DNA of 14,195 nt from NCBI GenBank assembly GCA_016839945.1, contig JAEOTE010000156.1:1-14195 (forward strand), given 5' to 3'. This document shows, one piece after another, positions 10,578-14,195 of the stretch (within the stretch, counting starts at the first letter, position 1; each line of letters begins with the position of its first letter). The translations under genes and the position numbers were made by a program. The notes under the pieces were generated by a model that was given only the letters and a program-made list of their open reading frames with translations, was not told where the DNA came from and made no database searches. The DNA comes from Candidatus Heimdallarchaeota archaeon (GTDB lineage: Archaea; Asgardarchaeota; Heimdallarchaeia; Heimdallarchaeales; Heimdallarchaeaceae).

Positions 10578-10657
10578 TAAATAAAAGAAGATGGAGGGAA
10601 GCTAGCAAAAAAATGATAGTGGGTGGATAATAATTATGAAGACTTTTGGCTAGCTTC
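10578..10657 (-). ncRNA. Candidate ~80-nt sRNA (or bidirectional terminator hairpin)
   Basis: Stem 10598-10611 / 10644-10657 (13 of 14 pairs; GAAGCTAGC/GCTAGCTTC). TTTATATA on the - strand at 10686-10679 puts a TSS at about the first base of the stem. Pyrimidine/U-rich 3' tail. Confidence 0.4.
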
Positions 10658-12665: not shown

Positions 12666-12710
12666 TGTTACAATTTTCCAGATTTTCTCTTCTGGTGGAA
12701 AAAAGTAACA
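12666..12710. promoter_or_regulatory. Long inverted repeat abutting the BRE/TATA of the peptide gene, candidate operator
   Basis: TGTTAC-aa-TTTTCCA (12666-12680), N15, TGGAAAA-aa-GTAACA (12696-12710); 13 of 15 positions complementary. Confidence 0.5.
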
Positions 12711-12713
12711 ATA

Positions 12714-12763
12714 TTTAAATAGAAGATGAAAAAGTGTAATCTTGAGCTTTATTGGCTGGTGGA
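12714..12763 (+). promoter_or_regulatory. TATA box (TTTAAATA 12714-12721), predicted TSS about 12744, and SD (GGTGGA 12758-12763) of the repeat-peptide gene
   Basis: Canonical archaeal spacing; the SD lies 8 nt before ATG 12772. Confidence 0.6.
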
Positions 12764-12771
12764 TAATAGAA

Positions 12772-13002
12772 ATGAAAAGTAAAACTAAGAAATTACTTGG
12801 CGTATTATTTGTAGTATCATTTATTGGAATAACAGCAAGTGTGATCGCTTGTGCAGGTCCAACAGGTGGATATCCTGATGAACCCTTAGGTCATACTGCA
12901 GGTCCAACAGGTGGATATCCTGATGAACCCTTAGGTCATACTGCAGGTCCAGACGGGGGATATCCAGACGAACCGATTAGTCATACTCGAATATATGTAT
13001 AA
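12772..13002 (+). CDS. 76-aa secreted precursor peptide with three tandem 15-aa cores
   Basis: MKSKTKKLLGVLFVVSFIGITASVIAC + AGPTGGYPDEPLGHT x2 + AGPDGGYPDEPISHT + RIYV. Good SD and TATA. Copy 3 carries four synonymous codon changes, which supports coding status. Confidence 0.85.
   Translation: MKSKTKKLLGVLFVVSFIGITASVIACAGPTGGYPDEPLGHTAGPTGGYPDEPLGHTAGPDGGYPDEPISHTRIYV
12852..12986 (+). repeat. 3 x 45-bp tandem repeat (coding)
   Basis: 12852-12896 and 12897-12941 are identical; 12942-12986 is diverged. Confidence 0.97.
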
Positions 13003-13045
13003 TGTGTAAAAAAATTCATGCTGACGTGAAATAATCGCCAGAAAA

Positions 13046-13400
13046 ACCCCACCCCTTTCCTCGGCGAGAGAAGGAAACCTGGGGCGTCTTAGAGAGGTCA
13101 TAGACGCCCATTAGGTTTTCATAAGGGGTGATATCCACAAGCAAATAGAACTCAAGCAAGGGGTAAAAAACGGGTCAAACCGAAAAAAAACTTTCGAGGT
13201 CTATAACTGAGAGAAATCCTACGAAGGCAGAAATCCTTGGGGATTTTTCATAGAGATCTTGTACAGAGTTCGCTACGTTGAATCTACGTGCAGGTTCTCC
13301 TGATCGAATTCTGTACGCTTGATCTCTTTGTCAGTTTATCTATCTTGACCCTACAATCTATCTATCCACCAACCAACCATAGAAATATGGGGGTCAAAAA
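13046..13400 (+). ncRNA. Large structured non-coding RNA / cis-regulatory leader of unrecognised family
   Basis: At least 10 nested helices found by eye, e.g. 13050-57/13123-30, 13073-81/13112-20, 13082-89/13102-09, 13172-78/13345-51, 13205-10/13331-36, 13252-58/13321-27, 13261-72/13305-16. G-U pairs work only on the + strand. Visibly GC-richer than other intergenic DNA here. Confidence 0.7.
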
Positions 13401-13401
13401 A

Positions 13402-14195
13402 ATGGAAAAACTTGAAAACATGACAAATTCAGACAAAAGAATACTGCAAATCTTGCAGAATTATCCACTAGAACCTTTTTCTTCAATGGCAAAGAGAGTG
13501 GAAATTTCTCCACAAACAATGATTCGAAGAGTAGAGAATCTAAAGAGTCGCAATATACTTCGCAATGCTATAGCCTCTTTCGTCCCTGAACGTATTGGTC
13601 TTACTAGATTTAGCGTTATTTTTGATATTTCTCAACTCCACCAGTTTACGCTTTTACAAAACGCTATTTCTGAACACAATTACATACGTGCATACAATCG
13701 ATTTTATGGCGAAAAGTTTGGCATACAAGCAAATTTCGATGTCCCAATGAATGTAAATGGAGTATTCACAAAATTCTTAGATTACTTAGTAAACGAAGAA
13801 TTCTGTGATGGTTATACCATATTCAAATCTAAAGGTCATCGTTTTTCTAAGCCAGCACCTATAACTATCTACAGTCAAGATCCAGAACCTTTTGATATCA
13901 TTTCATTCTGGCAAAAAAGAGTTAAAGCCAATTCTGAATTAAATGGTGTTAGAAGCGCTGTGACTGTTAAAAACGGAGAAATCATTATTGTGACTGATGA
14001 AGGAGAAAAACCCATTGAACCTTTACATCTAAGACTACTTCGAGATCTAACACGAGAAACTGCAAATGGACATAGGATTGGAATTCGCACACAACAAACA
14101 GAGCTAATTAATAACTACAGAGATCTGTATAAAAGCTTAGGTAAGAAAATAAGACTTACACCTTCAGAAGAGCACTTATTCAACAACCTTAGCGA
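13402..14195 (+). CDS. Lrp/AsnC-family winged-helix transcriptional regulator, probably tandem-domain (partial, more than 264 aa)
   Basis: Hand translation is open to the window end: MEKLENMTNSDKRILQILQNYPLEPFSSMAKRVEISPQTMIRRVENLKSRNILRNAIASFVPERIGL (Lrp HTH + linker), a RAM-like domain, then a second helix-1-like segment PIEPLHLRLLRDL. SD GGGGGT at 13389-13394. Alternative in-frame ATG at 13387. Confidence 0.88.
   Translation, partial: MEKLENMTNSDKRILQILQNYPLEPFSSMAKRVEISPQTMIRRVENLKSRNILRNAIASFVPERIGLTRFSVIFDISQLHQFTLLQNAISEHNYIRAYNRFYGEKFGIQANFDVPMNVNGVFTKFLDYLVNEEFCDGYTIFKSKGHRFSKPAPITIYSQDPEPFDIISFWQKRVKANSELNGVRSAVTVKNGEIIIVTDEGEKPIEPLHLRLLRDLTRETANGHRIGIRTQQTELINNYRDLYKSLGKKIRLTPSEEHLFNNLS

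Follow-up and report, generated by a model that had tools for sequence, protein, structure and literature searches.

A second complement to a small-peptide leader between the anti-SD and SD of a regulator gene in a Heimdallarchaeaceae genome

We found that the loop between the anti-SD and the SD of an Lrp/AsnC-type regulator gene holds a second complement to the leader of the small exported-peptide gene that precedes it. This segment (site B, TCTATCTATCCACCAACCAA, positions 13357-13376 of the + strand) could pair over the SD of the peptide gene, and its complementarity is real and, by a Watson-Crick score, non-random. A first complement (site A, 13132-13156, + strand) pairs with leader positions 12741-12765. 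The genus-wide conserved device is site A together with a switch in which a mimic of the regulator SD, an anti-SD and the SD itself exchange partners; site B is an add-on in the genome studied here. We put at roughly 0.4 the probability that site B acts as a lineage-specific second anti-leader element, grafted onto this conserved intercistronic RNA switch and coupling peptide and regulator. A function for site B is plausible in folding models. Judging by its distribution among relatives, it seems to have been added recently to an RNA masking device that is older and conserved, and most of the weight is carried by the conserved site A and the surrounding switch.

The window, i.e. the whole stretch of 14,195 nucleotides that was analysed, comes from contig C146 of a MAG of 3.0 Mb that is 88% complete (G000), whose closest database proteins are labelled Candidatus Heimdallarchaeaceae. 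The peptide gene (12772-13002, +) encodes 76 aa, a signal peptide followed by three 15-aa repeats; a Pfam search of the peptide returned no hit and exact-peptide look-up has no strain variants on record. The regulator gene (13402-14193, +; Pfam HTH_AsnC-type, 1.4e-7) runs off the window, and its orthologues have about 450 aa. Peptide gene, regulator gene and intergenic element are kept across the genus. We gathered the regulator-upstream region from 18 genomes, 13 of which hold the whole locus on one contig, and took five extra loci (L039-L043) from metagenome or database contigs. Peptide gene orthologues are present in the 13 complete loci with a variable number of repeats, from about 2 to 7 or more between species. 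Many MAG contigs of the genus end within these tandem repeats (L015, L024, L025-L029), and leader and regulator are therefore on separate contigs. In the pattern search with CGCCAGAAAMCCCCACCCC, genus stands for 24 genomes and family for 31; this pattern overlooked many known loci because the length of the A-run is variable. The nearest regulators in the searched collections are 67-69% identical (69% in G004), and the DNA of the closest regulator homologues (P0001 and P0003) lies outside the locus comparison. In the regulator tree G000 groups with G004; G005/G018, G002/G022 and G008 make up the other basal clade.

The region upstream of the peptide gene has a constant order in relatives: palindrome, TATA box, CTTGAGCT..AGCTGGTGGA, ATG. 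The palindrome (12666-12710, +) is an inverted repeat, TGTTAC..TTTTCCA-N15-TGGAAAA..GTAACA, with a spacer of N14/15 in orthologues. It lies directly 5' of TTTAAATA and is kept in most of the 16 leaders compared (L010-L026 leaders), one arm being degenerate or missing in G006, G022 and G005. It is probably an operator. In several relatives BLAST gives weak matches to the segment 12666-12721 elsewhere in the genome, on different contigs, a hint of more copies of the palindrome that would suggest a regulon. The predicted TATA box, TTTAAATA (12714-12721, +), keeps its position in all leaders. The usual distance between an archaeal TATA box and the transcript start is about 26 nt, which would place the start of the peptide transcript near 12744. 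The leader segment targeted by site B, TTGGCTGGTGGATAATAGA (12752-12770, +), includes the peptide SD GGTGG (12758-12762), and AGCTGGTGGA is identical in 15 leaders. The 16S 3' end, GGATCACCTCCT, was found on contig C157. Searched as a repeat family, the leader has no other copies genome-wide. One segment of the window, GGGTGGATAATAATTATGAAG (10598-10657), resembles the peptide leader and its start codon, with an identity of 11 nt; a AAGCTAGC/GCTAGCTT stem encloses it as loop sequence, and only a 5-codon ORF lies downstream.

Local alignment of site B with leader 12752-12770 gives 18 Watson-Crick pairs, one mismatch and one bulged C (13362), in agreement with the original prediction. The mismatch sets C12756 opposite A13372, and since this sole mismatch is C·A and not a G·U wobble, site B bears no RNA-specific signature. 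In a repeat search the ungapped core of site B is 14 nt long at 93% identity, and site A is 25 nt long at 84%. The targets of the two sites overlap at 12752-12765, SD GGTGG included, and the pairings are therefore mutually exclusive, so that the competition of A and B for the same leader bases, also part of the earlier claim, holds. The Watson-Crick local-alignment score of site B is 13.5; that of site A is 15.0 and rarer. Among 3000 dinucleotide-shuffled versions of the intergenic region a single one attained 13.5, as did 31 of 29,828 half-overlapping 400-nt chunks of the whole genome, both strands. About 6 of these 31 are the locus itself, and without them the natural frequency is about 25 in 29,828, i.e. 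close to 1e-3 per chunk.

Pairing energies tell less. The RNAduplex energy of site B (-23.8 kcal/mol) is unremarkable next to the shuffles (mean -21.0, sd 2.5) and to natural 400-nt chunks of the window (mean -19.9 kcal/mol), and partners reach about -20 to -21 kcal/mol because the leader is G/U-rich. We thus dropped this energy as a test of significance and replaced it by the Watson-Crick score; duplex energies against G/U-rich leaders overstate significance. Chance complementarity to such a leader could produce energies of the grade of site B easily enough, as the shuffle mean and the 5 of 62 natural chunks at or below -24.7 indicate. It is nevertheless the least credible of the explanations that we considered, and a very improbable one: a Watson-Crick score this high arises with a probability of about 3e-4 to 1e-3 per 400 nt, and the match shares target and strand with the conserved site and falls at a structurally meaningful place. 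Two such matches on the same strand, within 400 nt and to one 30-nt target, are not accidental. Another match, between ATTATCCACTAG (13460-13471, within the regulator ORF at the conserved NYPLE motif) and leader 12756-12767, pairs 11 of 12 positions and is probably due to chance, with an estimated 0.07 or so such matches expected.

Site A is the leader's best partner in all 13 complete orthologous loci. It lies about 390 nt downstream of the peptide leader, always immediately 5' of the invariant CAAGGGGTCAAACC, and mirrors lineage-specific leader bases in relatives. We used the mismatches in the leader:site A alignment of relatives to ask whether conservation acts at the RNA or at the DNA level, and both G·U and C·A types recur. 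Such a lack of an RNA-strand signature is what one would expect if TGGTGGATA/TATCCACCA were a protein-binding motif, e.g. for the Lrp-type regulator, present in leader, site A and site B; the three copies within 650 bp, adjoining the gene of a DNA-binding regulator, also fit. Yet the complementarity spans 19-25 nt and tracks the lineage-specific leader rather than a fixed short motif, the element is non-palindromic, unlike the operator candidates at 12666-12710 and the TTGTACAA pairs, and the motif shows no genome-wide enrichment (11-13 copies per strand in 3 Mb). We find it quite improbable that these are DNA-level sites.

The conserved switch resides in an intergenic stretch of about 400 nt with 40-47% GC, against 15-36% in the 2 kb upstream, and its region 13165-13410 folds with z = -5.3. 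The regulator SD, GGGGGTCAA, is at 13389-13397 (+), which confirms that site B lies just upstream of it, and GAGGTC, GAGGAAC or GGAG are equally spaced in relatives. As in an expression platform, an anti-SD, TTGACCC (13345-13351, +), is complementary to GGGTCAA at 13391-13397, and this relation is retained in relatives, where the anti-SD is 47-55 nt upstream of the regulator ATG and differs according to the type of SD (TTGACCC/GGGTCAA, TTGATCTC/GAGGTCAA, GTTCCT/AGGAAC). Also as in such platforms, the anti-SD has a second, mutually exclusive partner, the SD mimic GGGTCAA (13172-13178, +). Between mimic and anti-SD stands a long hairpin with inverted repeats (13249-13330, +; RNA domain 2). Site B was said to follow a structured domain directly, which is roughly right: it begins 26 nt after this hairpin. 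On its other side, site B abuts a small hairpin, CCATA-GAAA-TATGG (13377-13390, +), that overlaps the first Gs of the regulator SD and is present in MFE structures.

In many clade II relatives the place of site B holds another element, TGTTTCTT, which pairs with AAGAAACA beside the SD mimic. Their mimic:anti-SD helix is lengthened by AAGAAACAA:TTGTTTCTT, the latter standing just past the 3' end of the anti-SD and inside the anti-SD:SD hairpin loop. G000 has no AAGAAACAA/TTGTTTCTT pair, and site B is found at that place. In these clade II loci (L013, L017-L022, L039-L041, L043), AAGAAACAA..AGAGGTC pairs with GATCTCT..TTGTTTCTT and closes RNA domain 2; the pairing segments are homologous to 13172-13210 and 13318-13351 of the window, and the GAGGTCTA motif is the SD mimic for the regulator anti-SD.

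The conserved intergenic RNA carries four recurrent SD-like motifs of the form RGGTC(A/T): one lies in a hairpin loop (GAGGTCA), one each in CAAGGGGTCAAACC and TTxGAGGTCTA, and the fourth is the regulator SD. Other invariant intergenic blocks, in 13030-13210 of the window and its orthologues, are ATCGCCAGAAA, CCCCACCCC and GGCGA. RNAalifold, run on a MAFFT alignment of the conserved element of 180-200 nt, found nothing beyond the invariant TCGCC/GGCGA stem. A cmscan of the whole window against Rfam (E<=1) gave only two sub-threshold snoRNA-like matches elsewhere, with no described family and no recognised aptamer. Coding of the conserved element on the minus strand was ruled out because the indels between orthologues (1, 8 and 1 nt) are not multiples of three.

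We folded the locus with ViennaRNA, assuming from the position of the TATA box that the transcript starts at 12744. The original prediction had proposed that the leader is captured sequentially during transcription, and the thermodynamic models of G000 reproduce this order: in an RNA ending after site A the leader is predicted to pair with A (P 0.81), and in one extended to 13385, site B included, it pairs with B (P 0.85-0.92). In the free full-length fold leader:B has a probability of 0.84 and anti-SD:mimic of 0.82, the regulator AUG is unpaired at 0.72, and the peptide SD would be almost entirely hidden (unpaired 0.01). When the leader is blocked, as by a ribosome, or when site B is blocked, anti-SD:SD rises to 0.92-0.96 and the regulator AUG is unpaired at only 0.07-0.08. 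The predicted occupancies of leader:B and anti-SD:SD are inversely linked in all 12 combinations of start site and temperature, and also under blocking constraints.

The choice between A and B is much less robust. The isolated helices are nearly isoenergetic (A -21.9, B -23.2 kcal/mol) and, over a fold of 700 nt, the MFEs of the free and the site-B-blocked state lie just 3.4 kcal/mol apart. Moving the start to 12700 or 12735, or lowering the temperature to 10 C, gives the leader to site A in the model and closes the regulator start. Among the 11 other genomes modelled, G005 included, the leader stays on site A, and blocking the leader barely alters the accessibility of the regulator SD. Hence, the order of capture is borne out in the G000 models but flips with start site and temperature and does not extend to these other genomes. 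The suggested link to translation of the regulator fares similarly, since the strong effect on the AUG seen in the G000 model is fragile and coupling is absent in the same 11 genomes. In the model starting at 12744, warming moves the leader from site A (0.81 at 10 C) to site B (0.67 at 25 C, 0.84 at 37 C), with the regulator start opening along with it; such a shift could be thermometer-like behaviour or an artefact of the model.

If site B does act as a second anti-leader element, one might picture the following. Once the first rounds of translation are over, site A would capture the free 5' leader, with site B taking it over afterwards or capturing it instead. Leader bases 12766-12770, to which site A does not pair, could act as the toehold for a displacement of A by B. 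Capture by either would hide the ribosome-binding site of the peptide. Capture by B would in addition draw the loop of the regulator OFF hairpin into a long helix, so that the anti-SD would switch to the mimic and the regulator start would be exposed. Peptide and regulator would then be alternative products of a single transcript. A stronger version would be a bistable switch that senses the state of translation, with the leader handed from A to B, one mRNA toggling between peptide and Lrp-type regulator, possibly in a temperature-dependent manner, and site B as a rewired loop element that pairs locally in relatives; we consider this unlikely, though not negligible.

This scheme supposes that leader and site B would be transcribed together. 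No strong terminator or promoter was seen in the sequence between them. There are no oligo-T runs of 5 or more between the peptide stop codon and site A, and the only T5 run downstream of the peptide gene and upstream of site B is at 13243-13247. The complementarity would fit equally well if site B belonged to a separately promoted 5' UTR of the regulator and acted in trans, pairing with the leaders of other peptide mRNAs. A weak TATA-like sequence, TTTATCTA (13335-13342), could drive such a transcript, and pairing between two mRNAs has been reported to couple their genes in Listeria (PMC8722363). However, a start about 26 nt after 13335-13342 would fall within site B and truncate it, no convincing TATA box was found elsewhere in the intergenic region, and intramolecular pairing would be kinetically favoured if the genes were co-transcribed. 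We therefore regard action in trans as improbable.

The distribution of site B in relatives bears on whether it has been selected at all. Of 23 loci compared, only three (G000, G005 and G018) have a strong site B-like complement at the same position, and two (G002 and G022) have a degraded one. Such a complement is missing from 16 of the 21 orthologous loci other than that of G000, and G004, L039 and L042, the closest relatives found, are among these 16; none of the loci L039-L043 has a CCACC-type complement. We scored relatives for a leader complement 21-45 nt before the regulator ATG. The score of G000 is 13.5 (shuffle p <0.002), followed by 11.0 in G002 (p 0.004), 9.5 in G005 with the core CCACCAGCT (p 0.014) and a non-significant 7.5 in G022; the other 11 genomes have scores of 5.5-9.5 at other positions, with p from 0.03 (G006) to 0.97. 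Conservation accompanied by compensatory change was not found for site B across the 23 loci, and the original prediction, which took lack of conservation to count against it, is on this point largely contradicted.

In G005 and G018 the complement sits between an anti-SD (CCTCCAT) and an SD (ATGGAG), as in G000. G018 has the same leader as G005 and keeps the helix, a core of 11 Watson-Crick pairs and 1 GU pair plus a 3-bp extension, despite 4 substitutions in the unpaired flank. The 15 paired bases of site B show 0 changes between the two genomes, against about 9% divergence nearby, a sample too small for significance. In G000 the match covers lineage-specific leader bases, ATAATAGA (shared only with G004) and TTGG (unique to G000), and site B is therefore either young or has tracked its own leader. 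Site B might be ancestral and lost at least 2 times, or gained twice; parsimony favours neither. Its decay in G002/G022 points to weak or no purifying selection there.

These patterns give weight to a less adaptive account, which we take as a serious contender, only slightly less probable than the coupling reading. Site B might be a non-adaptive by-product, either a recent inverted copy of the leader or a diverged direct copy of the site A module, and would provide at most redundant masking of the peptide RBS, with no selected role in regulator control. Absence from the nearest relatives and decay in G002/G022 are what this account would expect, and so is the 18/19 identity, expected of a young copy. 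There are also local duplications around site B (CAGTTTATCTATC / CAATCTATCTATC), and site B with GGGGTCAAAAA resembles site A with GGGGTAAAAAA. The branch leading to the G000 regulator is long (0.39), and the ancestral ATG of this gene is gone; its 5' region has therefore been rebuilt. On the other hand, a second lineage, G005/G018, has a leader complement at the same relative position, and in G000 site B occupies the single loop in which pairing with a distant segment would turn the regulator switch over; for a by-product, such exact placement in an SD-sequestering hairpin loop would be a coincidence. A useless 18-bp complement to an RBS would also be expected to cost expression, and seems unlikely to be without effect because complements of 8 nt already repress in Bacillus subtilis, as described in a preprint on bacterial data (PMC12697547). 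These points argue for a selected role of site B as a second anti-leader element.

The G000 regulator has no ancestral start codon (MDQLN aligns to L-E-N-M-T), and its start must be at 13402, 3 codons upstream, or at 13387. In G005 and G018 the ancestral M is replaced by I and the start lies further upstream. In both lineages bearing site B (G000 and G005/G018) the 5' end of the regulator has been rebuilt.

Should site B work as modelled, it would exemplify how a masking device is rewired within a genus to couple two genes on one transcript, and would offer a compact testable example, with two sites of 20-25 nt. If it is only a young by-product, it marks the limits of the conserved device, i.e. 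site A and the SD-mimic/anti-SD/SD switch. To our knowledge, post-transcriptional control is almost unexplored in Asgard archaea, and we know of long-range masking of an RBS by the 3' part of the same mRNA mainly from a few bacterial cases. Site B would be a variant of long-range anti-SD masking or of an SD/anti-SD switch, from a lineage of archaea in which we know of no description of such control.

Several known systems share parts of this arrangement. In the fold-back (fbi) of hok, a type I toxin, the 5' end of the full-length mRNA is locked by a distant downstream complement, and only nascent or processed forms are translatable. Here too the predicted extreme 5' end of a small-protein mRNA is complementary to a distant downstream segment. 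However, hok mRNA becomes active through processing of its 3' end and is under the control of an antisense RNA, neither of which is known in the archaeal locus, where a second acceptor site is present. Platforms made of SD, anti-SD and anti-anti-SD occur in riboswitches and leaders, and like them the regulator SD can pair with an upstream anti-SD that has an alternative partner. Unlike in riboswitches, the proposed trigger would be the pairing state of another gene's leader. In this respect the model resembles the long-distance coupling of the coat and replicase cistrons in MS2, where a distant segment of the upstream cistron decides which pairing forms. Yet the downstream start of MS2 opens when the upstream gene is translated, and our model predicts the reverse.

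The icaR mRNA of Staphylococcus aureus is a natural precedent of close design: a sequence downstream of its stop codon pairs with the SD region of its own 5' UTR and blocks the initiation complex (PMC3868564). Site B likewise lies past the stop codon and is complementary to the SD region of the same gene, covering GGTGG at 12758-12762, the pairing here being predicted. The icaR case involves one short UCCCCUG motif and cleavage by RNase III in a bacterium, whereas the archaeal locus has two competing complements of 19-25 nt known from sequence, the second of which lies within the 5' region of the next gene. According to the preprint mentioned above (PMC12697547), 8-mers that resemble an anti-SD and stand hundreds of nt downstream of the RBS pair with it in vivo in Bacillus subtilis, repress translation and promote decay. 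Sites A and B resemble these sequences as pyrimidine-rich, anti-SD-like segments several hundred nt downstream of an RBS. Yet the B. subtilis 8-mers are synthetic, and the preprint describes such sequences as generally depleted, whereas the putative archaeal operon keeps two complements that are both long and natural.
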